From a virus (Duplodnaviria > Caudoviricetes), in the IMG/VR virus record IMGVR_UViG_3300028591_000078, positions 160,001 to 224,000 of that record: a stretch of 64,000 nucleotides of DNA; one strand, written 5' to 3'. Positions 9,301 through 50,568 of this stretch are shown piece after piece. Under the pieces are notes generated by a model. It ran no database searches and was not told the origin of the DNA. It was given only the letters and a program-made list of their open reading frames with translations. Numbering within the stretch: the stretch's first letter is position 1; the number at the start of each line of letters is the position of its first letter. The translations under genes and the position numbers were made by a program.

Positions 9301-12300
9301 ATAAGTACCAGCTACATTAGTTGCAGGGCCACCAGCAGAAGCTGATCCAGCATAGTTATGCGTATGAGACTTAGGGGCATAAGCAGAATCATGGTTATGA
9401 GATGTTGGAGCAGCTCCAATATTACCAGGAGTAATATTGATAGTGCTAGCACTAGACTGGTTAGCAGTAAATGTGCCAAGACTTGTACCATTGCCCTGAA
9501 TAGTAAGTGTACCATTGTTTACGGTATAAGTATGATCTGTCCATGGTACATTAACAGCAAGATATCCAGACTTGTCTAAAACAACAGGATATATTCTGCC
9601 AGCAGTTTCTGTAGCAGCTGCTGAGTCATTTGTAAGGGCTGTTTCAGATTTGAGTTTTGTCTTAAATGTAGTTCCACTTAAAGTTAAACCAATACCAGCA
9701 GAATAAGTAGTGTTATTATCTGCAGGCATGGTGAATATATATGACTGACCACCAGCTGTAATAGCATACTTACCACCATGAGCAAGTGTAATCTGATTAG
9801 TACCAGTAGATGTAGCTATACTTATAGCATGCGTATGGTTACCCGGAGCTGCATCAGTTGCACCAGTACCAACAGGTCTCCATGTATTCGTATCAGCAGG
9901 AGTTGTAAAGATATACGACTTACCACCAGCAGTGAGCTGATACTTGGTATTAGCTGCAAGAGCTATTGAACTTGTACCACTAGAAGCAGCAATACTTATA
10001 TCATGAGTATGACCACTAGTAGCAGCTCCAATATTACCAGGAGTAATATTGATAGTGCTAGCACTAGACTGGTTAGCAGTAAATGTGCCAAGACTTGTAC
10101 CATTACCATGAATGGTAAGAGTACCATTGTTTACAGTATAAGTATGGTCTGTAGGTGTAGTGAATATAATACTCTGACCACCTGCAGTGAGTTTATACTT
10201 TGTACTCGGAGATAATGTAATAGTGCTTTCACCATTATCTGCAGCAAGTGCAATACTATGAGTATGACCAGTAGGAGCAGCTCCAATATTGCCAGGAGTA
10301 ATATTAATGGTACTATCACCTGCCTGGTTAGCAGTAAACGTTCCAAGACTTGTTCCATTACCCTGAATGGTAAGAGTGCCATTGTTTACAGTATAAGTAC
10401 TATTTACAGGTGTAGTAAAGATTATTGACTGACCACCTGCAGTAAGCTTATACTTTGTGCTAGGACTAAGAGTTATAGCACTGGTTCCAGAATCTGTAGC
10501 AAGTGTTATACCATGAGTATGATTACCATAAGCGGCATTGGAAGCTCCTGTGCCGAGAGCAGGGCTAGTAATAGTAATATTACCATTTGCATCACTAGTT
10601 ACAGTTGTTCCACCAGCACCAGCAATCTTTCTTCTATCTCTAGCAGTACCATTGTCGCAGATAATCAGATAAGTATTGCCATTAGTAGTTGCAGCATTTG
10701 CATTACCATCAGAAGCTCCAGCATAAAGATGTGAAGTCCAATGAGTATCTGCAGGTGTTGTAAATACATAAGAGGTTCCACCAGCAGTAATAGCATACTT
10801 TGTAGAAGCAGCCAGACTAAGCTGATTAGTTGCACTAGAAGCAGCTATAGATGTAGCATGAGTATGATTACCATAAGCTGCAGTAGTAGCAGATGTGCCA
10901 AGAGATGGCATTGTCATCGTAGTGGTACCCTTACCTGTTACATGACCCTGAGCATCATAAGATACTGTAGGAATGGTAAATGTATCGCCAAATGTAAGAG
11001 TCTTAGTAGCAGAACCAGATGCAGTGCCTGCAGTAATAGCATTAGTGTGCTGGAATGTCAAACCATCATCAGCAATTTCAATACCACCACCGGCAGCAAA
11101 TGTAGGAAGTGTAACAGTGGTTGTACCTTTACCAGTTACATGACCCTGTGCATCATAAGATACTGTAGGAATACTAAAACTTCCACCATTACCTATGGTT
11201 GCTGTAGCAGAACCACTAGCAGTACCAGCAGTAACGGCATTAGTATGCTGGAATGTCAAACCATTTAGCTTAATACCAGTATTAGCTGTATAGGTAGGAA
11301 TTGTTATAGTAGTGGTACCCTTACCTGTTACATGACCCTGAGCATCATAAGATACTGTAGGAATACTAAAGCTTCCGCCATTACCTATAGTTGCTGTAGC
11401 AGATCCACTAGCAGTGCCAGCAGTTACACTATTAGTATGGCTTATCTTATTGCTAGCTAAGCTTATACCTGTACCTGCTGTAATAGCTGTCGAAGATCCT
11501 ACATGGCCATGAGCTGTAATACCTATAGCATAGAGTGCTTCAGATTTAGCTGTAGTATTTCTAGCAGAATCTGTAGCATGTGTATATGCAACAGCACCTC
11601 TATCTCCACGATATGCTGTAGAAGATGTTTCACCGAGTGCAAGATGAGAACCAATCGGAATATATGATTCTCCACCCCAACGATACTGAGTATTAGTAGC
11701 CTTAGCTACATATATCTTACCCTCTTCACCAGTATCAGGGAAATCATCTACTGTATCAAAATTCAATACGTCATCATAAGATCCAGGTATCTGAGAACTA
11801 GGAATCTTACCAGAAGAATCCAGAGTAGCGATACCATTATTGGATCCCATCAATGCTGTAACTGTGCCGATAGCCTGTGCAACAGCCTTACCAGATGTAG
11901 GTGTTGTACCAGTACTGGAATAAGTATCGGTTGTATCCATGTATGCAGAAGATCCAAGTCCCTTAACTGCTACATTAGCACTAGTACCATTAGTATTTAC
12001 ACTGATAGTACCATTAGCTGTACCTGTAGCTATAGATCTTACACCAGAGTTTGTAATAGATGTTCCAGAAACTGTAACACCATTAGACCCAGTATAAGTA
12101 GGAAGTGTGATCTTAGTAGTACCCTTATCTGTAATATGACCTTGTGCATCATAAGTAATAGTAGGTATTTCAAAGTTTCCACCATTACCAAGTGTAGATG
12201 TAGCTGTACCAGAAGCAGTACCAGCAGTAATAGCATTAGTGTGCTTAAAATTCAGACCATCAAGCTTGATACCATCACCTGCACCAAACTTAGGTGTAGT

Positions 12301-38610: not shown

Positions 38611-38640
38611 ATAGTCCTAGGGAATTATCCCTAGGACTAT
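38611..38640. terminator. hairpin terminator (CCTAGG family)
   Basis: atagtcctaggga-atta-tccctaggactat. Confidence 0.7.
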
Positions 38641-38670
38641 ATTTTATATACCTATATTAAGGCAATATAT

Positions 38671-38756
38671 GACTGTGCTCGAAAATGAGCACAGTCTTTT
38701 AAATTATTTTCTACAACCTATATAACTTAAGTGTTTTACACTTAAGTTATATAGGT
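38671..38756 (+). promoter_or_regulatory. type-A cassette leader: 10-bp hairpin plus 19-bp palindrome with GTTTTAC centre
   Basis: gactgtgctc/gagcacagtc and acctatataacttaagtgt-ttt-acacttaagttatataggt. Confidence 0.75.
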
Positions 38757-38784
38757 GTAAAATTTTCGAAAGAAGGTTTGATAT

Positions 38785-39513
38785 ATGTCTTTATGGGTTA
38801 ATGAAAATGGAGTAATGAAAGAGATTACTGATGTAAATAAAAGCAATGCTATAAATATAGTAAAACTTGGAATAGATGATCTTGATGTAACTGCTGATCA
38901 GGTAAAAAACTATATTATAAATTGGACTGGTTGGAATAAGGCAGCTTTTAATGATGAATATAAAGGTGAATTACTAATTCCTATAAAAACGGTTAATATT
39001 GGATGTGCCCCTGAGCTTATAGGAATTAATTATACAAGAGAATATTTTTATCAAGATGATATAGATGATAGTAATGATTATTCAAGTTATGACCTTTTTA
39101 TATTATCTAATACAACAACTACGGTAACAAAAACAACTATAGAAAGAATCGGATATAGCTATGTAGAAAGAGGAGATTTTGGAATCTCTGTAGATCTTAA
39201 TATATTACGTCAAGGAAAGTATGCTAATCTTAAAGCAGAATATTCTTATAGCATGCCTTTTACAACAGAAACTAATCAGGTTTCTACAACACGCAATGGT
39301 CGAACTATTACATATAGACCGGTAATGACACCTATGAAGTGCGTTGTAATGCATTTATCTGGATCAAATCTTATATTCTATCAGTCAGCAAATATTTATT
39401 CATATGGCGGAGAACATGAAACTACTTCTGCACTTAGAAATAATCTTAGAGTTCAAGCTAGTTCGACTGGTGGTAAAGGTATAGCAATGTACACTATACC
39501 TATATTACATTAA
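38785..39513 (+). CDS. variable tip cassette protein 1 (putative receptor-binding adhesin)
   Basis: MSLWVNENG N-terminus; body related to 46283..46972. Confidence 0.7.
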   Translation: MSLWVNENGVMKEITDVNKSNAINIVKLGIDDLDVTADQVKNYIINWTGWNKAAFNDEYKGELLIPIKTVNIGCAPELIGINYTREYFYQDDIDDSNDYSSYDLFILSNTTTTVTKTTIERIGYSYVERGDFGISVDLNILRQGKYANLKAEYSYSMPFTTETNQVSTTRNGRTITYRPVMTPMKCVVMHLSGSNLIFYQSANIYSYGGEHETTSALRNNLRVQASSTGGKGIAMYTIPILH

Positions 39514-39602
39514 GTAAATATTTCCAATTAATCTATGTATAACTTTATAATACTCTTGTACATATAGTCTTAGATGACTATATGTATAGGAGGTTATTAT
39601 AT

Positions 39603-39875
39603 ATGTCTAATAATAAGCAACCATTTTTATTTGACATAGATTCTGGAAATATTGGGGTAGGAGAAGATACTCCAATTATACAATTTAAGCATCCACCAAA
39701 GATTGTAGTATTATATCTATATGATACAAGAAGTATTTATAATCCTATGAAAGTTATAACTCTTCATCAAGATACTTCTAAACACATCTTTGGTACTAAC
39801 TATGTAGAACTACAAGGAAAATATCTAATATTTAATATGAGTACCGATGGTTTCTCATGGCTAGCATTTTTCTAA
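39603..39875 (+). CDS. tip-like domain lacking the conserved N-terminal peptide
   Basis: PKIVVLY similar to PKFxxxFY/PKAFVVAY of cassettes; own plain late promoter at 39541-39552. Confidence 0.5.
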   Translation: MSNNKQPFLFDIDSGNIGVGEDTPIIQFKHPPKIVVLYLYDTRSIYNPMKVITLHQDTSKHIFGTNYVELQGKYLIFNMSTDGFSWLAFF

Positions 39876-39879
39876 AACT

Positions 39880-39909
39880 AATCCCTAGGGTATTAATACC
39901 CTAGGGATT
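39880..39909. terminator. perfect 30-bp palindrome / bidirectional terminator
   Basis: aatccctagggtatt-aataccctagggatt. Confidence 0.75.
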
Positions 39910-39916
39910 TATTGTT

Positions 39917-40345
39917 TTAATAGAAGATGATTAGTTCACCATCTTCATATTTATAACTACTGCTACCATACGTTGTAGAATCGGATCCATTTGAAATTTC
40001 AATAGATAATTTTTTAGTTGAATCATTATAGGAATATTTATAATGATATCGTCCAGTACTACCATTATTATTATTTATTCCTACAAAGCTACCACTAGAC
40101 CCTGAACTAGTATCTATGTTTAATCTGTCAACTCCATCACTATTAATACCAGAAGAACTTGGTTCTGTATATCTATAAAAACACATACAAAATTTTGGAG
40201 CGCTAGGAAGATCAACAGTTTTATTTAATGAACCAGTACTGGTTGATGCTTTAAAAGATTTTATTCCTGTTAATCCAGAACCAGCAGCAAGATATTCATC
40301 AGTTAAACTAGTTACAGTACCATCTTCATTAGCATATATTGCCAT
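39917..40345 (-). CDS. variable tip cassette protein 2
   Basis: MAIYANEDG; body related to 40930..41337. Confidence 0.7.
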   Translation of the reverse strand: MAIYANEDGTVTSLTDEYLAAGSGLTGIKSFKASTSTGSLNKTVDLPSAPKFCMCFYRYTEPSSSGINSDGVDRLNIDTSSGSSGSFVGINNNNGSTGRYHYKYSYNDSTKKLSIEISNGSDSTTYGSSSYKYEDGELIIFY

Positions 40346-40393
40346 AATAAGCCTCCTTATGAATGTAAATAAATTTTATTCCTATTTATTTTG

Positions 40394-40423
40394 CTAAACT
40401 TAAAAGTAAACTTTTAAGTTTAG
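40394..40423 (-). promoter_or_regulatory. type-B leader palindrome
   Basis: ctaaacttaaaagt-aa-acttttaagtttag; identical copies at 41386 and 47019, inverted copy at 48960. Confidence 0.8.
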
Positions 40424-40505
40424 TCGAAAATTAAAAATTACATACTCACATGCTGCCTAAGTATATGAGTGGTAAAAATTTTTGATCAAATTAATTTTTA
40501 AATGA

Positions 40506-40534
40506 CTAAACTTTCAGTTTTACTGAAAGTTTAG
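40506..40534 (+). promoter_or_regulatory. type-C leader palindrome
   Basis: ctaaactttcagt-ttt-actgaaagtttag. Confidence 0.75.
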
Positions 40535-40557
40535 GAAAGAAAGAGAAATGCATTTTT

Positions 40558-40890
40558 ATGGCTGTATATGCTAATGAAGATGGTACTATTAAAAATCTGA
40601 CTGATATAACTAATACTGGTTTTACAAAAATTACAATGGGAATTATAGGTTCTAAGGGTACTATATCAAAAAATGTTGGTTTTACTATAAAACATTGTTT
40701 ATTTATTGGAATTAGAGAAAGTGGCGGAGACAGTTATCCTGAAATACAGTCTAATACATTTGCGGTTGATAGTGGATCTATATATGTAGGAGGATATGAT
40801 TACGCAAATGTATCATTTTCTGGAACTACTATTTCCTATAGTAATAATGGTAGTAGCAACAGAAATGTTGTTTATATAGCATTTGGATAA
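40558..40890 (+). CDS. variable tip cassette protein 3
   Basis: MAVYANEDG; ends in YIAFG. Confidence 0.7.
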   Translation: MAVYANEDGTIKNLTDITNTGFTKITMGIIGSKGTISKNVGFTIKHCLFIGIRESGGDSYPEIQSNTFAVDSGSIYVGGYDYANVSFSGTTISYSNNGSSNRNVVYIAFG

Positions 40891-40895
40891 ATAAA

Positions 40896-40922
40896 ATCCC
40901 TAGGGTAAAATACCCTAGGGAT
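40896..40922. terminator. bidirectional terminator, near-identical to 39880
   Basis: atccctagggta-aaa-taccctagggat. Confidence 0.75.
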
Positions 40923-40929
40923 ATTTATT

Positions 40930-41337
40930 TTAATAAAAGACTATCATTAGACAATCCTCATATTTTCTATCTTCTGAAGTTTGATTGGTACCAGCGTGTC
41001 CATTATTTATACTAATTACTAGCTGTTTTGTTGATTCTATATAATTATAGGTATATAAATAACTGTTTGGTATACTTCCATTTGAATCAAATTTACCAAC
41101 CCAATGGCCACTTAGATTAACAGAATATCCTAGATATGAGTGATATTCAAGGCCACCAGCAGTACCACTTATAAGTTTATTATATGTATAAAAACATAAA
41201 ACAAATTTTGGCTTGCTATCAAGCGTTATAGTAGTCGATTTAGTAAAAGCTTTTATTCCTGTTAGCCCAGAATCAACAGCAAGATATTCACCAGTTAAAT
41301 CAGATATAGTACCATCTTCATTAGCGTATATAGCCAT
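40930..41337 (-). CDS. variable tip cassette protein 4
   Basis: MAIYANEDG. Confidence 0.7.
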   Translation of the reverse strand: MAIYANEDGTISDLTGEYLAVDSGLTGIKAFTKSTTITLDSKPKFVLCFYTYNKLISGTAGGLEYHSYLGYSVNLSGHWVGKFDSNGSIPNSYLYTYNYIESTKQLVISINNGHAGTNQTSEDRKYEDCLMIVFY

Positions 41338-41385
41338 AGTAAACCTCCTTATGAATGTATTTTATTTTTATTCCTATTTATTTTG

Positions 41386-41415
41386 CTAAACTTAAAAGTA
41401 AACTTTTAAGTTTAG
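41386..41415 (-). promoter_or_regulatory. type-B leader palindrome
   Basis: Identical to 40394-40423. Confidence 0.8.
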
Positions 41416-41522
41416 TTGCTTGTAAAATTTTACATATGGCCATACTGCCTAAGTATAAGAATGATTAAAATTCTATATTTGATTAAATAATAAAGCCGTA
41501 GGGAAATTCCCTACGGCTAATT

Positions 41523-42107
41523 TTATTCATCATCGTATACACTAGAAAGTTCTTTTCCAATATCTGTAACTCCAGCTTCATCATTAGATATCTGCTCTGT
41601 TGCTTCCTCATCTTCATTAAATGATTTTGCTGCCCATTCAGATATACCAATATCTTTAGTATCTTGGACGAATTCATCTTTACGAGTATATACTTTTATA
41701 GCATCAAGTACATATTGATCGAGCTTCATAGCATCTATGAGTTTTAATATATTAGGACTCAATCCATACTCTGACCCACATTCAAATAAACGCTCTTTAG
41801 CAACTCCAAGTATTGCCAGATAATACTCATCTTCAGTATTGAAATCACGTCTATTTAAAGATGCTATCTTGATTGCATCCTGTGCTACCTGATCAATCTG
41901 TTCGAGAATAAGTGTAAGATAGTCATCTACATCCATAGTGACTTCAGATTTTGCAGACTTCTTTCTACGAATCTCTAAGATCAACATAGCAAGATTTACC
42001 ATTACAAGTACTACTACTGCTACTATAAGTAAAACACTAGTAGCCTCATTCTCAGGTGTCATTACCTCGGGATGAGATTCTGCACTAAGTAAAATAGTAT
42101 TCATCAT
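41523..42107 (-). CDS. single-TM membrane protein
   Basis: Hydrophobic helix followed by RRKK; acidic C-terminus. Confidence 0.6.
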   Translation of the reverse strand: MMNTILLSAESHPEVMTPENEATSVLLIVAVVVLVMVNLAMLILEIRRKKSAKSEVTMDVDDYLTLILEQIDQVAQDAIKIASLNRRDFNTEDEYYLAILGVAKERLFECGSEYGLSPNILKLIDAMKLDQYVLDAIKVYTRKDEFVQDTKDIGISEWAAKSFNEDEEATEQISNDEAGVTDIGKELSSVYDDE

Positions 42108-42124
42108 CTTAAACCCTCCTCTTA

Positions 42125-43777
42125 TTAGCATACATAGTTATTATTCGTATTATTATTAGCAACAATTCCAGACAGTCCTTTACCTCTTAAGAGGTTATTG
42201 CTGAAAATGTTGTTCTGGCCATTTACATATATTGTATACTCATCATCTTTGTAGTCTTTAGGATCACCATTTCCACGGACTATAGTATTATATGCAAAAA
42301 TATTGTATTTCGGTACTACATCTGTAGAACCCTGAGCAGCATTCAGCAGAGCGATACCAATCTTGCAATTAATAAGATGATTATTCTCTATCTTATTATA
42401 CTGAGTATTAGAGTAGAAAGATGCTACATAGATACCAAGATTACAATCTATGGCTTTAGAGAATACTATAGAGTTTGTATAGCAAGGAGTATTGACATCA
42501 GATATTATCCAGAAGCCATACTTACAATTCTTAGCAGTACAGTTCTCTATAATATTATTATCTCCAGTAATCTTGATACCATGTCTACACTCTACAGTAA
42601 CATTCTCGATTCTATTATTGTTACCATGTACACATATATTACCCCAAGGACGTTCAATAGGACCAATAAGTCCCATAGAAGATATACTGAGATTTCTAAG
42701 AGTTATTCCAGAACCCTTGATATCAAATACATACTGCTCAGTCTTCTTATCAAACATATCCATATGTATAGAGTTGGTAATCTTAACACCAGATTCACCT
42801 ACTATTTCAACATCGTTTCTATTGATAATAATAGGCTTTCTGGTAGTATATGAATTATATGCTTTAAGAAGAACTATCTTTCTAGCATTCACATTATTGA
42901 GCAGCTTGGCAAATACTTCATGAAGAGAATCATCCTGTCCAACAACGAAGTCTGCACCTGTATATTCAGGACCTATAGTATATACCTTAGGTTCGAGTCT
43001 TACTATCGGAACTTTAGTATCTCTATATACTAACTGATTACCCTCAAACTGAATAGCTTCGAGTTTCATCAGCATTTCAGGAGACATAAGTCCAGACTTA
43101 TAATAGGTTACAAGGTTATTATCAGCCTTACTATCCCAAGATGAAATCTGCTCATCAGATACATGACGGATATTCTCATTAGAAGGATGGATATAATTAT
43201 TAGCATTATAGTCTATAGACTTAAGCTTATCATAGTCCTTTGCTGTAATAAGACCATCGATCTCACTAGTAGCAAGAGGATAAGTGAACATCTTTAAAGC
43301 TACCCACTTACCAGCAGTGTAACGATATCCTATGCCTTCATCATTTACTGGCACAAACCAGCCCTCTTCTATATTACTAAGACCAGAATACTTCTGTTTA
43401 AATTCTTCAGTATTCTTTACTGCTGGCTGCCATTTCATACCCATAGTAGCAGCTGCAATTTTATTATCAGTTTCACTACGAGTATACTTATCAAAGATCT
43501 TAGATCTTTCTTCTTTAGTAATATGAATAATAGCGTTATTAGTATGGGATCTAAGCTCAGATCTTACAAGGTCTGCTTTAGCCTTAGAGCCCTTAACAGA
43601 CTCTTTATTATTCCATTCATCAGTCTTCTCTTTAGTAAGATGAATATTCTGATTAGTTATATGAGCGAGCATTCTCTCATATATTATAGGATCAACAGAG
43701 ACATTCTCCTGAGTAATATTAGTAGTAGTTTCTTCTGCCTTAGAAGAATTGTCTGATATAATTCCAATCGGTTTCAA
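42125..43777 (-). CDS. tail spike with pectin-lyase-like beta-helix (putative depolymerase)
   Basis: N-terminal HITxEE..W/GLMS fibre motifs; C-terminal GxNNxIEN beta-helix repeats. Confidence 0.7.
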   Translation of the reverse strand: MKPIGIISDNSSKAEETTTNITQENVSVDPIIYERMLAHITNQNIHLTKEKTDEWNNKESVKGSKAKADLVRSELRSHTNNAIIHITKEERSKIFDKYTRSETDNKIAAATMGMKWQPAVKNTEEFKQKYSGLSNIEEGWFVPVNDEGIGYRYTAGKWVALKMFTYPLATSEIDGLITAKDYDKLKSIDYNANNYIHPSNENIRHVSDEQISSWDSKADNNLVTYYKSGLMSPEMLMKLEAIQFEGNQLVYRDTKVPIVRLEPKVYTIGPEYTGADFVVGQDDSLHEVFAKLLNNVNARKIVLLKAYNSYTTRKPIIINRNDVEIVGESGVKITNSIHMDMFDKKTEQYVFDIKGSGITLRNLSISSMGLIGPIERPWGNICVHGNNNRIENVTVECRHGIKITGDNNIIENCTAKNCKYGFWIISDVNTPCYTNSIVFSKAIDCNLGIYVASFYSNTQYNKIENNHLINCKIGIALLNAAQGSTDVVPKYNIFAYNTIVRGNGDPKDYKDDEYTIYVNGQNNIFSNNLLRGKGLSGIVANNNTNNNYVC

Positions 43778-43836
43778 TTGAAGTCCTCCCTTCAAAATTT
43801 GGTGGTCGGGATAGATATCTATCCCGACCGATTTAT

Positions 43837-45054
43837 TTAAAGATCTTCAGGATGGATCTCAGCATCATAAGAGTATCCATGAGGATGCATTGCAGTTGTA
43901 GGAACATGACGCATTGCAGGTCTAAGATCATGATGGTCAAGATCCCATCTGTCCTTAGATATCTGGTAATATCTCATACACTTAAGAGATTCCAAGCAAG
44001 GATCAGGTACAGTAAACAGCGATGCAGATGTACCAGCTTCAAGCTTGATATATTCTATAGTAGCATCTGCTTCAGAAGAAGCCATAAGTCCTACATAGTA
44101 ATTATCTACAGGCTCAGCGATATTGAATGTATACATATTCAGACCACTAGCACCACAGAGCTTAGTACCATTGGTAGCAGTAAGCAGATAGATATTAGCA
44201 CTACCAGTAAGCTTAGCAGAAAGTGTATAGTTTCCAGCAGGAAGATGCTCTATGTACTGTACTATATTACCACCAGTAGCAAATCTTACTCTGATAGGAT
44301 TGGACAGATAGAGTCCAGTATCATCAGCAAATATCTTACAACCATTAGTATACCATCTATCAACAGTATAACCAGTGATATCATAAGATACTTCTTCTCT
44401 CTGATTTATATAGAAAGAAGGATTGATAAGTATATTAGGTTTAGATGTAGACTGATCATAGGTAGCAGAACCACCTTCAGATTCTGTATTACATCTTACA
44501 AGTTCGAGTGCAGGATCAGGATCTACATACATAGTACCATTTTCACCATGCTCGATCTTTACATACTGAAGAATTATATCTTCACCAGAGTACACTCTGA
44601 TAACGAACTCATTGGTTACAGTATTATATACTATTCTAGGACCAATCTGAGTTACCTGTTCCTGATAGAAATAGCTATTATTGGTAGCATCTCTAATAAA
44701 TGCATCCCATGTAGCTTCATATCCAACAGTCTTACAAGAGATAGAAAAGAGACTTCCTACCTCTATATTTCTAGTAAGCTTCTGAGATATATTAATATAA
44801 GCATCAGAAGTACCACTTACTCTTACTCTGAGACCCTGTTCTACAGGATTTATCTCAAAAGATACATCAGGAGACTGAGAGCTTGTAACAGTCCAGTTAT
44901 TTACACATGATTTATTGAATTCTGTATAAGAATCTTTACCCGAAGTATTGATCTTAAAGTTTGAATTGATCAAAAGATTGGGGTTGCATATAGTATTAGG
45001 CGAGACGATTCTGGCATTTCCAGCAATCATGTTGCTTCCAATTGCAAGAGACAT
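43837..45054 (-). CDS. tail protein with two carbohydrate-binding-like modules
   Basis: Duplicated PNLLINxxFxIN..YxKxExG..PDP..E..C module typical of phage tail fibre CBM domains. Confidence 0.65.
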   Translation of the reverse strand: MSLAIGSNMIAGNARIVSPNTICNPNLLINSNFKINTSGKDSYTEFNKSCVNNWTVTSSQSPDVSFEINPVEQGLRVRVSGTSDAYINISQKLTRNIEVGSLFSISCKTVGYEATWDAFIRDATNNSYFYQEQVTQIGPRIVYNTVTNEFVIRVYSGEDIILQYVKIEHGENGTMYVDPDPALELVRCNTESEGGSATYDQSTSKPNILINPSFYINQREEVSYDITGYTVDRWYTNGCKIFADDTGLYLSNPIRVRFATGGNIVQYIEHLPAGNYTLSAKLTGSANIYLLTATNGTKLCGASGLNMYTFNIAEPVDNYYVGLMASSEADATIEYIKLEAGTSASLFTVPDPCLESLKCMRYYQISKDRWDLDHHDLRPAMRHVPTTAMHPHGYSYDAEIHPEDL

Positions 45055-45141
45055 ATAGGATTTCCTCCTTTTGAATTGATATTTAATATAAAGTTAAGAG
45101 AAGCAATATTAAACCCTACCCATATGGGTAGGGTTAATGTA

Positions 45142-46176
45142 TTAGGTATGAGTTCCATACAGGTATCCAGCAGGACAAGTTGTAGTATCTGCAGCTCTAG
45201 TACCAAATCCTATATTTCTTAAACAGCTAAGATAATAGTAGCTATCACCAGTAGAAGTCTTATGATTCTCAGTTGTTTCAGCAAGACTACTTGCATAGTT
45301 TGCATTTATTGCATTTAATGCAGAGCCACCAGCAGAATCTGATCCGGCATAATTATGTGTATGGGACTTAGGAGCATAAGCAGTGTCATGGTTATGAGTA
45401 GCAATAGCAAAGTATGAATCAGGTCTATATGCCGCGCTATCTATAGCATGAACCTTTATATTCTGAACAGAACCATTTATAGTAAACTGTATATTACCAT
45501 TTATAGAGCTTTCAGCAGCACTTGTAACACCAGTATTAGTGATTGTAGATCCAGTTACATTTATACCAGTACCACCAGTATATGCAGTACCAGCAGGCAG
45601 AGGTGCAGTTGCAGTATGATCATCACCATATGTATATACAATATTACCGTTTTCGACATTGATAGACTTTACATATGTACCCTTGATATTATTACCGCTC
45701 TGATCAGCAATAGCCTTATCAGCAGTACCATGAATATTACCAGTAAATCCATACTGCGATCCAATGCTACCATCATCACATACATAGAGATGTCCTATAA
45801 CAGCGCCATCGTGAAAGTATATATGCTTAGCGATATGAGTTTCACCCTGATCATTTATAAGGGCAATACCAGTTTCACCAGTATCAGAGATCTTATATCC
45901 ATTGATTGAATCTGCATTCAGATCAGGCATAGAATCTACAGTAGTTTTCAACCATTCTTTATCTACAGATATAGTACCAGTAGATGCGATATAGATTATA
46001 CCTTCACCGGCCTTAATAGATGATCCACTACCAGGATCTACATAGTCATCATATATATAATATACTGTCTTGGTGTTATGATTAATCTCACCAGTACTAA
46101 TCTTCAAAAGCCATTCGGATTTCTTTATTGGAACAGGCTCATTATTACGATTTTTAAGTCCGTTTATTACAGGCAT
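45142..46176 (-). CDS. short tail fibre protein
   Basis: Shares HNHDxAYAPKSHTHNYAGSxSAGG and the C-terminal LRxxxxGTxAAxTTxCPxGxxYGxH motif with the giant fibre. Confidence 0.7.
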   Translation of the reverse strand: MPVINGLKNRNNEPVPIKKSEWLLKISTGEINHNTKTVYYIYDDYVDPGSGSSIKAGEGIIYIASTGTISVDKEWLKTTVDSMPDLNADSINGYKISDTGETGIALINDQGETHIAKHIYFHDGAVIGHLYVCDDGSIGSQYGFTGNIHGTADKAIADQSGNNIKGTYVKSINVENGNIVYTYGDDHTATAPLPAGTAYTGGTGINVTGSTITNTGVTSAAESSINGNIQFTINGSVQNIKVHAIDSAAYRPDSYFAIATHNHDTAYAPKSHTHNYAGSDSAGGSALNAINANYASSLAETTENHKTSTGDSYYYLSCLRNIGFGTRAADTTTCPAGYLYGTHT

Positions 46177-46250
46177 TGAATACTCCTCCTTTTATAAAGT
46201 GTATTTTAATATAAAGTTAATACTCTCCAAATAGCTAGTGATAGAAGAAT

Positions 46251-46278
46251 TACCCATGTACCAATTGGTACATGGGTA
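46251..46278. terminator. perfect 28-bp palindrome / terminator
   Basis: tacccatgtaccaa-ttggtacatgggta. Confidence 0.7.
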
Positions 46279-46282
46279 TATA

Positions 46283-46972
46283 TTAATCATCAAAAGTAAG
46301 AATATTGAATACTCTAACTTTATCATTACCTGGATATACAGATATATTTGATTTGGCTTGAGATTTTGTAACACTACTATTTAACTGAAAAGCTTGTGAT
46401 ATAATAAAATTATTACCACTAAGAGTATATAGCATTACATTACTGTCAACTCCTCTAAATCCTGGTTTATATGGATATATAATGTATTGTGATTGCCCAG
46501 AACCTATTTGAATCGGAGCTCCACTTAATTCGAGCATAGCCCACGAATAACCAGTATTATTGGAATAATAACTTTGACCTTGTTTTAACTTATACCATGA
46601 CTGGGAACTAATAAGTTCATTTTGAAAACTATAAATAGTATTAGTACTTGTGGCTGTCAAACTTGTATATACTTCATCTGTATAAGTAGTTGCATCAGCA
46701 TCTGGATCATCACTTCGAAAATTTAAAGCAATATAAGAAGGTGTACATCCAAGATCTATAGTCTTTATTGGAATTACAAAATTTTCCATATTTGCATATG
46801 TTGATGTAGGAGTTTTAGTTCCCCATCTAGGATAATTATTAATTATAGTGCTTCTAAATTCAGCAGGACTCATATCACAAGTATCGCTAGTAATTTTAAA
46901 AGTTTGAAAGAACTTGGCACTTGCTTTACTAAGATCTTTAATACTACCATTCTCATTAACATATACTGCCAT
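46283..46972 (-). CDS. variable tip cassette protein 5
   Basis: True start MAVYVNENG after GAGGTG. Confidence 0.7.
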   Translation of the reverse strand: MAVYVNENGSIKDLSKASAKFFQTFKITSDTCDMSPAEFRSTIINNYPRWGTKTPTSTYANMENFVIPIKTIDLGCTPSYIALNFRSDDPDADATTYTDEVYTSLTATSTNTIYSFQNELISSQSWYKLKQGQSYYSNNTGYSWAMLELSGAPIQIGSGQSQYIIYPYKPGFRGVDSNVMLYTLSGNNFIISQAFQLNSSVTKSQAKSNISVYPGNDKVRVFNILTFDD

Positions 46973-47018
46973 ACTAAGGCACCTCACGTTCATTAAATTT
47001 TTATTCCTATTTATTTTG

Positions 47019-47048
47019 CTAAACTTAAAAGTAAACTTTTAAGTTTAG
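47019..47048 (-). promoter_or_regulatory. type-B leader palindrome
   Basis: Identical to 40394-40423. Confidence 0.8.
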
Positions 47049-47091
47049 TCGAAAATTAAAAATTACATACGGCCATAGCGAGGCAATATAT

Positions 47092-47220
47092 GATCATACC
47101 CATTTTAGGGTATGATCTTTGAAATATTTTTCTATAACCTATATAACTTATTGGTTTTACCAATAAGTTATATAGGTTTAAATCGTGTAAAACACTTAAG
47201 TTATATAGGTGTAAAATTTT
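47092..47220 (+). promoter_or_regulatory. type-A leader (covariant hairpins plus extra flipped half-palindrome)
   Basis: gatcataccc/gggtatgatc; aacctatataacttattggt-ttt-accaataagttatataggtt; gtgtaaaacacttaagttatataggt. Confidence 0.75.
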
Positions 47221-47237
47221 GAAGGAAGGTTTGATAT

Positions 47238-47990
47238 ATGTCTTTATGGGTTAATGAAAATGGTACTATGAAAGAAATTGCTACAGATAAGGATAGTACT
47301 GGTGCATATAAATGTACTAGAGATCTTGTATACTGTAAATGGTCATATAACAATGTAGCACGAGAAGGATATCAAGGATATCAGGGTATTACTGCTGCTA
47401 CATTAGGATTAACAAAAACTATATTAGTTGATAAAAAGACTGGTTCTGGTCAGAGTGGATCTTATTCATATCCATCTCGTGATATAAGTATAAAAGATCT
47501 TGATGAAAGTTATAAAAAGACTATTTATACTGGAACATTTCCTCGTAATATGTGTCCAAATGCAGCAATGGTATCACAAATCAGAACTGATACACTAATC
47601 AGTTCTGATACTGGTTTGGTTTTAAAACAATATTTTATTAGTAATACTGCTGAATTTGATAAGTTTTTAGAAGTTGGTGATTCTTTTAGTAGTATTGTTG
47701 GATGCGGATACCCAATTGCAGATGATTATAGTAATAATGCCTCTAAATCTAGTGACCCTAGAAATTGGTCGTCAAAAGTTGAACTGAGAGCTATGGGAGA
47801 ATGCTTAGATGGTATTAATTATAGATTCTATGTAGTACTAGCTAGAACTTCTGACATTACAGAACAGGCAGCTTTAACTACAAAACTGTATTCTTATCAT
47901 AGATTAAATTCTCCAGGATTTGATTATAAATGGATTGGTACTTATTTAATTCAACATATACCATCATACACTGAATATACTATAGAATAA
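47238..47990 (+). CDS. variable tip cassette protein 6
   Basis: MSLWVNENG; body unrelated to cassette 1. Confidence 0.7.
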   Translation: MSLWVNENGTMKEIATDKDSTGAYKCTRDLVYCKWSYNNVAREGYQGYQGITAATLGLTKTILVDKKTGSGQSGSYSYPSRDISIKDLDESYKKTIYTGTFPRNMCPNAAMVSQIRTDTLISSDTGLVLKQYFISNTAEFDKFLEVGDSFSSIVGCGYPIADDYSNNASKSSDPRNWSSKVELRAMGECLDGINYRFYVVLARTSDITEQAALTTKLYSYHRLNSPGFDYKWIGTYLIQHIPSYTEYTIE

Positions 47991-47996
47991 TATAAA

Positions 47997-48021
47997 ACCC
48001 GTGTACCATTGGTACACGGGT
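47997..48021. terminator. terminator, covariant copy of 46251 palindrome
   Basis: acccgtgtacca-t-tggtacacgggt. Confidence 0.7.
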
Positions 48022-48053
48022 ATATTATTTTATTGAAAGCTCATTACGTTACC

Positions 48054-48371
48054 TTAATTGTATGCCTTTGTCTGTAAGTATATGATCTCATAGCCATATT
48101 CTTTTGCACAGATGTGTTCTATATTACATCCACGTGCAGTATTATATCCATCTACAAATGCAACGACATCTGCATTAGACATAAGCTTGAGACTGTCTGC
48201 AAGATACCATAATGGCTTAGCATCTACAGGAGCATCCTTGAAGAAACTATCGATGATTTCTATCTCTTCTTCTCTATATCTTTCCTTTATTTCCTTGATT
48301 GCCTCTTCTCGTGTAGCAAGAATCTGCTCATCTGAGAGACTTCTCATCGGCTGAGAGATAAATACCTTCAT
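48054..48371 (-). CDS. DUF4406-like (nucleoside deoxyribosyltransferase-fold) protein
   Basis: MKVFISQPM..ADVVAF..ARGCNIEH motif. Confidence 0.7.
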   Translation of the reverse strand: MKVFISQPMRSLSDEQILATREEAIKEIKERYREEEIEIIDSFFKDAPVDAKPLWYLADSLKLMSNADVVAFVDGYNTARGCNIEHICAKEYGYEIIYLQTKAYN

Positions 48372-48425
48372 AACTATATCATCCTTTCTTTTGAATATAT
48401 TATATAGTTATTGAGGATTTGCCTT

Positions 48426-48830
48426 TTAATACACTACAAATACACCATACTTTATTGAACTGTCACTTTTTACAATTAGTGTTGTTGCATTATTTGTATC
48501 TTTTGCTAAGTTAATATATGCTCCACCTCTACCAGCATTAACACTATAGTTCCAACCTATATTTCTACTAGTAATTTCCTCACCATTATAAGTAGTAAAT
48601 ACCATATCTTCAACTTTTATTATTACTGGAACTCTTACTGTAGTTTCTGTCTCCACATGGAGAGGTATAAGTACTATATATTTATAATTAGTATAATTAG
48701 GTATACTAACAGAATCATCCGTTGTTCTAGTACCAAAATATTTGATACCATTTATTACAAATCCATTACTATAATCTGTTTTTTCAGTTAAGTTTTTTAA
48801 AGTTCCATTTTCATTTGCATAAATAGCCAT
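48426..48830 (-). CDS. variable tip cassette protein 7
   Basis: MAIYANENG; DYxxGFVINGIKY subfamily. Confidence 0.7.
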   Translation of the reverse strand: MAIYANENGTLKNLTEKTDYSNGFVINGIKYFGTRTTDDSVSIPNYTNYKYIVLIPLHVETETTVRVPVIIKVEDMVFTTYNGEEITSRNIGWNYSVNAGRGGAYINLAKDTNNATTLIVKSDSSIKYGVFVVY

Positions 48831-48845
48831 AAAATCAAAATCCTC

Positions 48846-48877
48846 CTAAACTTTTCAAGTAAACTTGAAAAGTTTAG
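48846..48877 (-). promoter_or_regulatory. type-C leader palindrome
   Basis: ctaaacttttcaagt-aa-acttgaaaagtttag. Confidence 0.75.
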
Positions 48878-48959
48878 TCATTTAAAAATTAATTTGATCA
48901 AAAATTTTGGCTATTCATATACGGCCACAATGTGGTCGTATGTAATTTTTAATTTTTGA

Positions 48960-48989
48960 CTAAACTTAAAAGTTTACTTTTAAGTTTAG
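48960..48989 (+). promoter_or_regulatory. type-B leader palindrome (inverted copy)
   Basis: ctaaacttaaaagt-tt-acttttaagtttag. Confidence 0.8.
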
Positions 48990-49037
48990 CAAAATAAATA
49001 GGAATAAAAATTATTTACGATCATAAGGAGGCTTACT

Positions 49038-49493
49038 ATGGCCGTATATGTTAATGAGAATGGTACAGTGCAAACGTTAGCTACAGATGGCGAACCATTA
49101 AACATGTCAGTTCAACATTATACAGCAAAATTTATTTATGCATATGCTCAGAGTAATCCATGGCGTGGATCTGGCTTTGAAGACCAAAGTTTTACTTTAC
49201 CATTTACTCCAAAAGCTTTTGTTGTAGCTTATGATAATGCAAAAATGCCAGTAGAACACGCTGACAGTACAAACAGTCATCGTATTATAACATCAAGAGA
49301 TATTGCAATAGGTGATAACTCAATAGATATAACTGCCTCTTTTACCACTAACCATAAAAGCGTTTATTATCATTATTTTAAAATTAATGGTAATACAGTC
49401 ACTATACCAAAGACTACATATACTAGTTTTGCTCTTCCTTCGGTAGCATCTCACACTTTCATAATAAATTTTGATGTAATCTTTTTCTATTAA
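49038..49493 (+). CDS. variable tip cassette protein 8
   Basis: MAVYVNENG. Confidence 0.7.
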   Translation: MAVYVNENGTVQTLATDGEPLNMSVQHYTAKFIYAYAQSNPWRGSGFEDQSFTLPFTPKAFVVAYDNAKMPVEHADSTNSHRIITSRDIAIGDNSIDITASFTTNHKSVYYHYFKINGNTVTIPKTTYTSFALPSVASHTFIINFDVIFFY

Positions 49494-49531
49494 ACAAAAT
49501 TTACCCACAGGGAAAACCCTGTGGGTATTTA

Positions 49532-49966
49532 TTATGTAAGTCCGAATACAAGATACTTAGGATAATAGTTTGCACCATTGTCATGAAACTTAATATTTAA
49601 TCCAGTAGAATTTATTAGAGTTGCTTTTATTATTAATCCACCTCTACCAGCAGAACCACTATAGGCCCATCCAACAGATCTAGTAGTTGCTCCATTAAGG
49701 CCTCCAGAAGTTTGAAAAGTTAAAGGTGTTTCTAATATAAACATTCCACAAGAAAGTCGCATGCTTGCGGTAGGATCATCAGGCTGTATAGGAAGTCCTA
49801 TGATATATTTATATCCTGTATAATTAGCAATATCAATTCCGACTTCAGTACTAGCATGCTCTACAGTACCAAGATACTTGATACCATTGATTACAAAACC
49901 ATCACCATAGTCAGTCTTGTTGGTCAGTTCTTTCATTACACTGTTTTCATTAGCATAAATCGCCAT
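49532..49966 (-). CDS. variable tip cassette protein 9
   Basis: True start MAIYANENS; body related to 48426..48830. Confidence 0.7.
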   Translation of the reverse strand: MAIYANENSVMKELTNKTDYGDGFVINGIKYLGTVEHASTEVGIDIANYTGYKYIIGLPIQPDDPTASMRLSCGMFILETPLTFQTSGGLNGATTRSVGWAYSGSAGRGGLIIKATLINSTGLNIKFHDNGANYYPKYLVFGLT

Positions 49967-49991
49967 AACTCTTAAATCTCCCATATATAAA

Positions 49992-50074
49992 ATTTTCAGT
50001 TTTATGGCTTAAGAATTATTACTAAGAACTTCTTAGTAATAATTCTTAAGGTGAATTATGATAAAACTGAAAAT
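49992..50074. promoter_or_regulatory. type-D shared leader: 21-1-21 palindrome inside 14-bp outer inverted repeat
   Basis: cttaagaattattactaagaa-c-ttcttagtaataattcttaag (50008-50050); attttcagttttat/ataaaactgaaaat. Confidence 0.75.
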
Positions 50075-50096
50075 AAAATCATAGAAGGTTTTATTT

Positions 50097-50531
50097 ATGG
50101 CAGTATATGCAAATGAAAATGGCAATATTAAGGAATTAACTAGTAAGGTAGACCTTGGTAATGGCTTTGTTATAAACGGTATAGAATACTTAGGAGAATA
50201 TCTTCCTTCTCAAAGAGATGGAACTTTTACTTTACCAAAACCATATACAAGCTATAAGTATTTAGTTGTGTATGATTTCTATGGTAAGAAAAATAATGGA
50301 GAAGCTAGCTGGACTAATGTAAAACAGCATTCATGCCTAGAATTTATAGATACATCACTGATTAATCCAAGTGATAGATACACATATGATGGATATATGG
50401 TTGGAGGGGATGATCCAACTACAAGTAACAAATTATGCTGTATTATTGAATTTGGTAATACTACGACATTAAGTATAGACTGTGGAAATTATTATAGTTA
50501 TAATAGTATAAAATTTTTCGGTATATACTAA
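50097..50531 (+). CDS. variable tip cassette protein 10
   Basis: MAVYANENG; GFVINGIEY subfamily. Confidence 0.7.
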   Translation: MAVYANENGNIKELTSKVDLGNGFVINGIEYLGEYLPSQRDGTFTLPKPYTSYKYLVVYDFYGKKNNGEASWTNVKQHSCLEFIDTSLINPSDRYTYDGYMVGGDDPTTSNKLCCIIEFGNTTTLSIDCGNYYSYNSIKFFGIY

Positions 50532-50568
50532 AAAATAAACGGGTGGAAGTTCCACCCGTTTTATTTTA
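50532..50568. terminator. bidirectional terminator
   Basis: aaacgggtggaa-g-ttccacccgttt. Confidence 0.75.

Follow-up and report, generated by a model that had tools for sequence, protein, structure and literature searches.

The window analysed here is a stretch of 64,000 nt (bases 160,001–224,000) of a jumbo phage genome of 238,365 bp, IMG/VR record IMGVR_UViG_3300028591_000078, with an estimated completeness of 97%. Within this window lies an array of ten small genes, here called cassettes 1 to 10, the products of which share a short N-terminal peptide (the tag) and are otherwise dissimilar, and each of which is preceded by an AT-rich perfect palindrome. An RNA polymerase beta′-like protein is encoded just upstream of the window; the phage has a multisubunit RNA polymerase, as in phiKZ and AR9 relatives, and its ribosome-binding sites are strong (AGGAGG). 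Gut metagenomes of sheep, cattle and goats, drawn from 16 studies, contain near-identical DNA, and homologues of the tagged array were found only in jumbo phages of the ruminant gut.

A six-frame scan of the whole genome with the tag motif [AS][IVLM][YWF][AVI]NE..[GSN] returned 10 occurrences, each at the start of an open reading frame (ORF) and all within window positions 38785–50531. A first-pass annotation, made from the letters of the window, had reported ten genes with a common N-terminal peptide at these starts; all ten are present, and all ten are intact. The proteins follow the extended pattern M[AS][IVL][YW][AV]NE[ND][GS]xhKxL[TAS], in which M1, N6 and E7 are invariant, G9 is nearly so, and positions 2–5, 11, 12, 14 and 15 are conservative. 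This conserved peptide covers ~16 residues (~33 in one subfamily), and the mean identity among the bodies is ~20%. Cassettes 7, 9 and 10 constitute one subfamily, cassettes 1 and 5 are homologous over their whole length (26–27% identity), and profile comparison limits the homology between subfamilies to the first 45–55 residues. No family match was found for any of the ten proteins in Pfam or PHROG. Within codons 2–9 of the tag, pairwise differences amount to 83 synonymous vs. 118 non-synonymous, and position 2 uses four Ala codons; these differing synonymous codons inside the tag show that selection acts on the peptide rather than on the DNA.

The dedicated palindromic leaders and terminators of the first-pass annotation were likewise recovered. 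A palindrome with a stem of 13–21 and a GC content of 0.20–0.28 lies before every cassette, and BLAST of the leaders revealed no further copy anywhere in the genome. Such palindromes number 9 inside the 12-kb array vs. ~3 weaker ones across the other 226 kb. They are assigned to the types P1 (with its variant P1′) to P5, among which the pairing is kept perfect via compensatory changes (P1 vs. P1′; P2 vs. P3 and P4); a half copy of P1, with its loop in the opposite sense, follows P1′ at 47185–47210. Terminator-like hairpins are also in excess (20 found vs. 3.9 expected), and the layout of each insulated unit is terminator, AT-rich palindrome, ribosome-binding site, ORF and terminator. Neither the array nor the cis-elements private to it are in doubt, and both are unusual.

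The promoters of the remainder of the genome provide the standard against which the palindromes can be read. The sequence AAC[AT]-N6-TAA occurs 15–70 nt upstream of genes 44 times vs. 3.2 expected, with no enrichment of other spacings. For AR9, the part of the published study available to us (Lavysh et al. 2017, PMC5312081) gives AACA-N6-TA/G as the late consensus of the non-virion RNA polymerase, the last base being the start site, and contains no description of palindromic or invertible promoters. The enriched motif of the present genome is this AR9 late consensus, at the same distance from genes, with the difference that AACT is as acceptable as AACA. The fibre genes and two untagged genes of the locus carry the late motif ~41 nt before the ATG, whereas the ten cassettes do not carry it there.

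A late-promoter weight matrix was trained on 52 sites outside the array (training median 13.9 bits). When applied to the palindromes, it scored the four copies of P2 at 16.4 bits, P5 at 13.3, P1′ at 11.7 and P1 at 10.9, in each case in one direction only, because the asymmetric centre supplies the start-site A (in P5, the C of AAC). With C at its centre, P5 contains the match AACTTCTTAGTAA toward cassette 10, and its other strand reads AAG (6.6 bits). The early motif TTATATATTATAATAGTGA plus flanks has ~15 copies in the genome, none of which is in the array. An early-promoter-like motif (..AAAGATTTCAATTATATATTATAATAGTGA..), e.g., at window 32998 (−) and at 73019 (−), with ~15 copies that are all outside the array, is long, highly conserved and akin to the AR9 early consensus. 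Sigma70-like sites show no excess over shuffles (62 found vs. 75 expected). A TATAC element upstream of the palindromes was set aside as a less probable promoter: it is found in either orientation with respect to the genes and makes up the arm of the central hairpins.

The palindrome centres invert between otherwise identical genomes, without an encoded invertase or integrase, which is direct sequence evidence for the switching element in cis that had been suggested earlier. The related assemblies used in the comparisons are labelled L005, L006, L008, L009, L011–L013, L035, L040, L042, L050 and L051, of which L005 is a sister contig ~5% divergent from the window. Among otherwise identical contigs, the 1–3-nt segment between the inverted repeats occurs in both orientations. 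Two assemblies of run ERR2027900, L005 and L006, overlap for 10,980 nt and disagree at a single base, the centre of P5; six of the contigs are identical over 1,243 nt save for this same base. When the window, L013 and L050 are included, 6 sequences carry C at the P5 centre, as read on the strand of cassette 10, and 5 carry G. At the P2 palindrome of cassette 8, a change of the loop from AA to TT is the sole difference over 663 nt between L008/L009 and L011/L012. The P3 loop is flipped in L005 relative to the window, and P4 was never flipped in about ten samples. In a second phage lineage, described below, the palindrome shared by a divergent gene pair carries AACTTTAGTGTAA (11.6 bits). Four samples have its loop in the AAA state and six in the TTT state; between L040 and L042, this loop is the sole difference over 1,841 nt. 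In each lineage, shared palindromes stand close to 50:50. Because the arms do not reach the length of assembler k-mers plus flank, an assembly artefact is unlikely; in addition, the loop states reappear with several assemblers. Between the window and the L005 clade, differences are also seen at the centres of GC-rich bidirectional terminator hairpins (50537–50561, 47997–48021 and 49502–49527): two of them are exact complements (C/G and A/T) and the third is approximate (TTTT vs. AAAG). Within the clone, these centres are constant.

The first-pass annotation had held that the array is neither a classic shufflon nor a diversity-generating retroelement (DGR), and the searches agree with it. The serine and tyrosine recombinase families PF00239 and PF00589 are absent genome-wide, with positive controls, from this 97%-complete genome, a genome-wide search for reverse transcriptase (PF00078) was negative, and no direct repeat of the template-repeat/variable-repeat kind is present in the cassette bodies.

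The bodies of the tagged proteins were examined by structure prediction. An AlphaFold2 model of cassette 7, built from a nine-sequence alignment, has a predicted local distance difference test score (pLDDT) of 74, with residues 27–134 forming a beta-sandwich; residues 1–25 fall below 50, i.e., the tag region is disordered in the model. In an exhaustive structural comparison, eight of the nine best matches were C-terminal domains of phage receptor-binding proteins (overall Z 4.2–6.0), led by the phi812 baseplate (Z 6.0) and phage K gp144 (Z 5.4) and including the K64, Kp9 and Fri1 spikes, the monocin side fibre, T7 gp17 and the spike of phage P1. Foldseek searches of the PDB and BFVD yielded no hit at E ≤ 0.001, and an ESM Atlas shape search was uninformative. 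Prediction of a three-copy complex of cassette 7 gave an interaction prediction score from aligned errors (ipSAE) of 0.84 vs. 0.18 for the best control. In the calibration, 20 of 30 proteins whose solved structure is a pair of one chain attained this mark, vs. 1 of 23 whose solved structure is a single chain; the trimer job, unlike this calibration, used a custom alignment and three copies. The trimer runs have at least 78% of contacts in common, with a partner pLDDT of at least 79, and the predicted interface comprises residues 18–33, 55–95, 103, 127 and 131, without involvement of the tag. For cassette 1, the AlphaFold2 model was unusable (pLDDT 32); aerolysin/ETX-like features suggested for it by a language model (score 0.94, 158 shared features) had no Pfam support and were dropped.

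The models are consistent with cassette bodies that form homotrimeric beta-sandwich heads resembling the distal domains of receptor-binding proteins. Small receptor-binding proteins look like this, having a head of trimeric beta-sandwiches and an N-terminal peptide that is left free, but it is a resemblance rather than a proof. From the weak fold matches, the predicted homotrimer and the tail-fibre neighbourhood, where fibre genes preceded by canonical late promoters lie among the cassettes, we infer that the cassette products may be receptor-binding tips.

A different role for the tag, which we regard as improbable, is that of a targeting or processing signal (a capsid-targeting sequence, propeptide or cleavage site), with the cassettes encoding injected or internal effectors, e.g., for anti-defence, in a hyperplastic region of the PeSL type (see below). 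The head protease of phiKZ recognises the motif S/A/G-X-E, to which A/V-N-E of tag residues 5–7 would fit, and the present phage has a multisubunit RNA polymerase like the phiKZ and AR9 relatives. A short constant N-terminus on unrelated bodies, promoter/stem-loop repeats and replacement between 95%-identical phages are also reminiscent of T4 internal-protein loci and PeSL regions (PMC2839356). However, the conservation of the tag runs beyond the putative cleavage site (G9, h11, K12, L14 and T15, and ~33 residues in one subfamily), whereas in T4-type internal proteins with a capsid-targeting sequence it would be expected over ~10 N-terminal residues that end at a protease site. In addition, the bodies are predicted to be trimerising beta-sandwiches with receptor-binding heads as their best matches, the cassettes are interleaved with fibre genes, and the sole promoter-like elements are of the late type.

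Relatives of the array were sought by several routes. A word-indexed search detected only sister phages ~95% identical, and an exhaustive profile search added the more distant members P0016–P0019 and P0021, which keep the N-terminal ~33 residues and a C-terminal FGI[YR] and differ in their middles; P0020 (1496 aa), a repetitive dockerin protein, looks spurious and was not retained. P0019 belongs to the second jumbo-phage lineage, ~240 kb, which has a homologous array of six or seven tagged cassettes with the tag variant MA[IV][HN][VT]N.. and the same module of depolymerase-like protein, fibre of the carbohydrate-binding-module (CBM) type, short fibre, membrane protein and untagged small proteins. 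The tag is uniform within a lineage and different between lineages, which fits co-evolution with a partner. In one second-lineage copy (L035:8012–8440, minus strand), the tag MAVNVNE is followed by a frameshift in a five-A run, which may be a pseudogene or a slippage-type ON/OFF site. Megablast of the region and tblastn of a 698-aa neighbour against phage records gave no match, no related locus was found by a search of IMG/VR, and scans of IMG/VR and JGI metagenomes with a DNA pattern of the tag gave chance internal matches only, never N-terminal ones. Some of these lie in proteins that, judged by eye, we take to be of SspB type.

Compared as the first-pass annotation had proposed, the related phages differ in cassette content, order and orientation. 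In L005, the slot of cassette 2 holds a 126-aa protein 41% identical to cassette 2, and the slot of cassette 4 holds a 142-aa protein 77% identical to cassette 2; in L013, the slot of cassette 8 is occupied by an allele of 153 aa (56% identical). In L050, the body of cassette 10 has been exchanged exactly between the constant N-terminal ~35 residues and the C-terminal FGIY (the last ~20 nt of the gene), and in L051 a different cassette occupies the slot of cassette 1 in the opposite orientation. Alignment of the assembled contigs to the window revealed no inversion joints, solely these slot replacements, and the single RNA run consisted of scattered pieces only. Over the longer term, bodies are exchanged by recombination inside the constant ends and repeated leaders.

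This mobility, i.e., units that move, invert and are replaced between strains, together with the frameshift right after the tag in one second-lineage copy and the restriction of homologues to a narrow phage group, is what small mobile modules of ORF plus palindrome would produce if they were selfish or decaying repeats without a role in the infection cycle. We consider this very improbable, since all ten ORFs are intact and the tag is under selection at the peptide level, the array is retained in two lineages with diverged tags, and family searches found no transposase or homing nuclease associated with the array.

We propose, tentatively, a recombinase-free switch, in which micro-inversion flips opposed late promoters, ten such switches serving trimeric heads that have one docking peptide in common; a single phage lineage would thereby give rise, continuously, to virions of differing host specificity. 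Each palindrome would hold two opposed AR9-type late promoters (AAC[AT]-N6-TA, the last A being the start) that share a centre, so that the consensus would be complete in one direction at a time. Inversion of the loop, probably through a hairpin or template-switch error of replication, would then reverse the promoter; indeed, the flipped bases lie on key late-promoter positions, from which each flip should reverse the promoter direction. A single palindrome would be either ON or OFF, OFF meaning that the promoter fires into a terminator, whereas the palindrome of a divergent gene pair would express either one gene or the other, and the near 50:50 ratio at shared palindromes would be expected because both states would express something. 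Under this reading, the sister genomes would have cassette 9 on instead of 10, or cassette 8 on, or cassette 3 on, and a population would be a mixture of genomes expressing different tips. The free tag would dock all heads at one common tail or baseplate site, like the "conserved peptides" of branched receptor-binding systems. Such a locus would be a viral contingency locus of a new mechanistic type, a designation as tentative as the switch itself.

A less likely alternative is that the tagged proteins are virion tips without any switching, all ten being co-expressed to give a multivalent virion. The palindromes would then be RNA hairpins of the 5′ untranslated region, or operators, with a functional U-rich sense loop, and the flips would be frequent by-products, neutral or mildly harmful, to which perfect palindromes are prone. 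The sense-strand loop is T-rich in 8/8 single palindromes of the window, a bias that could mark a functional RNA hairpin as the selected feature, and it reads TTC in 4/4 in the second lineage, even without a promoter consensus. Terminator loops flip between lineages too, and shared palindromes would be free to stand near 50:50, since either state gives one gene a U-rich loop. However, no canonical early or late promoter was found upstream of the palindromes. Strong sense-strand hairpins with U-runs (z about −5) lie directly upstream of the palindromes of cassettes 1, 6 and 8, with weaker ones before the others, and the regions around shared palindromes (103–130 nt) leave at most ~40 nt upstream of each palindrome, with no other promoter match; given the hairpins with U-runs just upstream, the palindrome is the only room for a promoter. 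Moreover, matches of 10.9–16.4 bits in five palindrome types are unlikely by chance (only 35 positions of the genome score ≥14 bits), and within the clonal clade the promoter palindromes vary, whereas the terminators do not.

Several observations, in addition to the T-rich loops, weigh against the switching and docking of the cassettes. First, 8/8 single palindromes of the window aim the consensus promoter away from the adjacent gene and into upstream terminators, with P5 aimed to cassette 10, such that most cassettes must be OFF in the majority genome. Second, P3 (N5) and P4 (N7) depart from the N6 norm, and the second lineage has three or four palindromes with the loop TTC for which neither orientation gives a promoter match and which stay unflipped throughout. 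Third, loop flipping appears to be partly a general property of palindromes, terminator loops included. Fourth, all fold matches of cassette 7 have Z < 8, a range that any beta-sandwich arrangement can give, and no anchor with a docking domain was identified, PDB sequence searches of three fibre proteins having given nothing useful. Overall, the promoter toggle taken by itself, as read from the sequences, is the side to which we incline, and the docking of tips taken by itself, as read from the models, is likewise slightly favoured. Taking the two jointly, the locus may be a contingency array of at least ten small proteins, probably on the virion and host-binding, and here our confidence stops just short of an even call.

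The neighbouring genes and the coordinates of the array are compiled in Table 1. The first-pass annotation had placed a CBM tail protein, a depolymerase and a short tail fibre among the cassettes and a fibre-chaperone-like gene before them. The first of these stands as the 405-aa tail fibre protein and the second has a weak match, whereas family and PDB sequence searches gave no match for either the 344-aa "short fibre" or the 151-aa "chaperone-like" protein, the latter assignment thus being without support. In two samples, 60 nt of the 344-aa fibre gene (45312–45373) are exchanged for 75 other nt, which makes the fibre shaft locally mosaic. The gene at 6358–14916 (minus strand) encodes a protein of 2852 aa that has a peptidase-like segment and contains three stretches 40–50% identical to the L005 orthologue of the 344-aa fibre; this protein may be a giant fibre or be associated with the tail, and it is a candidate for the anchor. 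The stop of the depolymerase-like gene is overlapped by a gene (41523–42131, minus strand) for a 202-aa protein with a single transmembrane helix, which is conserved at 191 aa in the second lineage. A 105-aa DUF4406/nucleoside 2-deoxyribosyltransferase-like gene (48054–48371, minus strand; PHROG 355, E 1.5e-16), situated between cassettes 6 and 7, has its own late-promoter-like motif. The relation of the 97-aa untagged ORF to the tagged family was not significant in hhalign; in the second lineage, two more untagged small proteins (115 and 95 aa) follow its 92-aa counterpart (L035:531–1534).

Table 1. Coordinates of the cassettes, palindromes, terminators and neighbouring genes in the window
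Feature	Position	Strand	Remarks
Terminator hairpins (two)	38611..38696		38611–38640 and 38671–38696; separate cassette 1 from upstream late gene
P1, before cassette 1	38716..38756		stem 19, loop TTT; late-promoter match 10.9 bits on minus strand, away from gene
Cassette 1	38785..39513	+	242 aa, tag MSLWVNENG
Untagged small beta protein	39582..39875	+	97 aa; canonical late promoter; 92-aa counterpart conserved in second lineage
Cassette 2	39917..40345	-	142 aa, tag MAIYANEDG
P2, by cassette 2	40394..40423		stem 14, loop AA; late-promoter match 16.4 bits, plus strand
P3, by cassette 3	40506..40534		stem 13, loop TTT; N5 spacing
Cassette 3	40558..40890	+	110 aa, tag MAVYANEDG
Cassette 4	40930..41337	-	135 aa, tag MAIYANEDG
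P2, by cassette 4	41386..41415		16.4-bit promoter match aimed into terminator 41494–41518
Bidirectional terminator	41494..41518		strong; upstream of cassette 4 unit
Putative depolymerase spike	42125..43795	-	556 aa; weak NosD-type beta-helix match, E 4e-4
Tail fibre protein	43837..45054	-	405 aa; PHROG 4492, E 2e-19; canonical late promoter at 45095
Fibre-like protein	45142..46176	-	344 aa; canonical late promoter AACTTTATATTAA at 46218; repeats in common with 2852-aa giant protein
Cassette 5	46283..46972	-	229 aa, tag MAVYVNENG
P2, by cassette 5	47019..47048		
Central hairpin and U-run	47092..47117	+	in the intergenic region of cassettes 5 and 6, flanked by its two palindromes; z −5.0
P1′, before cassette 6	47136..47178		stem 20, loop TTT; differs from P1 by compensatory changes
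Cassette 6	47238..47990	+	250 aa, tag MSLWVNENG
Cassette 7	48426..48830	-	134 aa
P4, by cassette 7	48846..48877		stem 15; N7 spacing
Central hairpin and U-run	48917..48943	+	directly upstream of cassette 8 palindrome; −20.8 kcal/mol for 62-nt fold, z −5.4
P2, by cassette 8	48960..48989		
Cassette 8	49038..49493	+	151 aa
Cassette 9	49532..49966	-	144 aa
P5, common to cassettes 9 and 10	50008..50050		21-nt arms, single centre base 50029
Cassette 10	50097..50531	+	144 aa

If the proposed reading is true, phages would have a third route to vary host recognition, beside invertase-driven fibre switching and DGR mutagenesis, and a minimal promoter toggle without an enzyme of its own, which could be copied in synthetic biology. 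The principle of the conserved docking peptide would also be widened: instead of two or three large spikes, a library of ten small heads would use a single site, with a bearing on host-range engineering. The locus is, in any case, a testable case of whether minute inversions of palindrome loops can serve regulation. Even if the promoter reading fails, a palindrome centre that is the sole variable base in 11 kb of otherwise identical genomes calls for caution in viral-metagenome variant calling.

Among known systems, the nearest to the tag are the branched arrangements of multiple receptor-binding proteins with short conserved N-terminal docking peptides, as in K1E/K1-5/SP6 and the Klebsiella KP32, KP34, Menlow and PhiK64-1 groups (Latka et al. 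2019, PMC6872550; PMC13352976). In both cases, a short group-specific N-terminal peptide (7–29 aa there, ~16 aa here) is found on otherwise unrelated proteins, the genes of which lie beside tail-fibre genes and are swapped between relatives. However, the branched systems employ depolymerase spikes of 600–1200 aa docked on a T4gp10-like branching domain, whereas the present array comprises ten single-domain proteins of 110–250 aa with their own palindromic promoter units, and no branching domain was found. The BppL protein of the lactococcal phages TP901-1 and Tuc2009 is a homotrimer of ~160–170 aa, the conserved N-terminus of which plugs into the baseplate and the variable beta-sandwich head of which sets host range. 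The cassette products are similarly small and, as modelled for cassette 7, predicted to be trimeric, with a conserved N-terminus and a variable beta-sandwich head; however, BppL is encoded by one gene per phage without switching, and its sequence is unrelated (no Pfam match here).

With regard to switching, the invertible systems (Gin and the G segment of Mu, Cin of P1, plasmid shufflons, fimS and the Bacteroides invertons) likewise select an adhesin or fibre product through heritable, reversible DNA inversion. These systems depend on a site-specific recombinase, and the segments that they invert are hundreds to thousands of bp long, whereas here no recombinase is encoded and the inverted segment is 1–3 bases between abutting arms of 13–21 bp. 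Minute inversions of hairpin loops in non-coding chloroplast DNA, and template-switch mutation at palindromes and quasipalindromes, are regarded as neutral homoplasy. The flips of the array resemble them in that a few bases between perfect inverted repeats are inverted independently of a recombinase, recurrently among close relatives; the difference is that the inverted bases are here the start site or the invariant C of a promoter consensus. A related paper is PMC10710096.

In T4-type phages, the mobile regulatory cassettes known as PeSLs (Arbiol et al. 2010, PMC2839356) are repeated units of promoter and stem-loop that flank small non-core ORFs and through which modules are replaced between ~95%-identical phages, as with the units described here. 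While PeSL units carry sigma70-like early promoters and terminator stem-loops, the present units carry an AR9-type late motif inside a perfect palindrome, and their ORFs belong to one tagged family. The locus departs in a defining feature each from phages with multiple receptor-binding proteins, from invertase-driven fibre switches and from PeSL shuffling.

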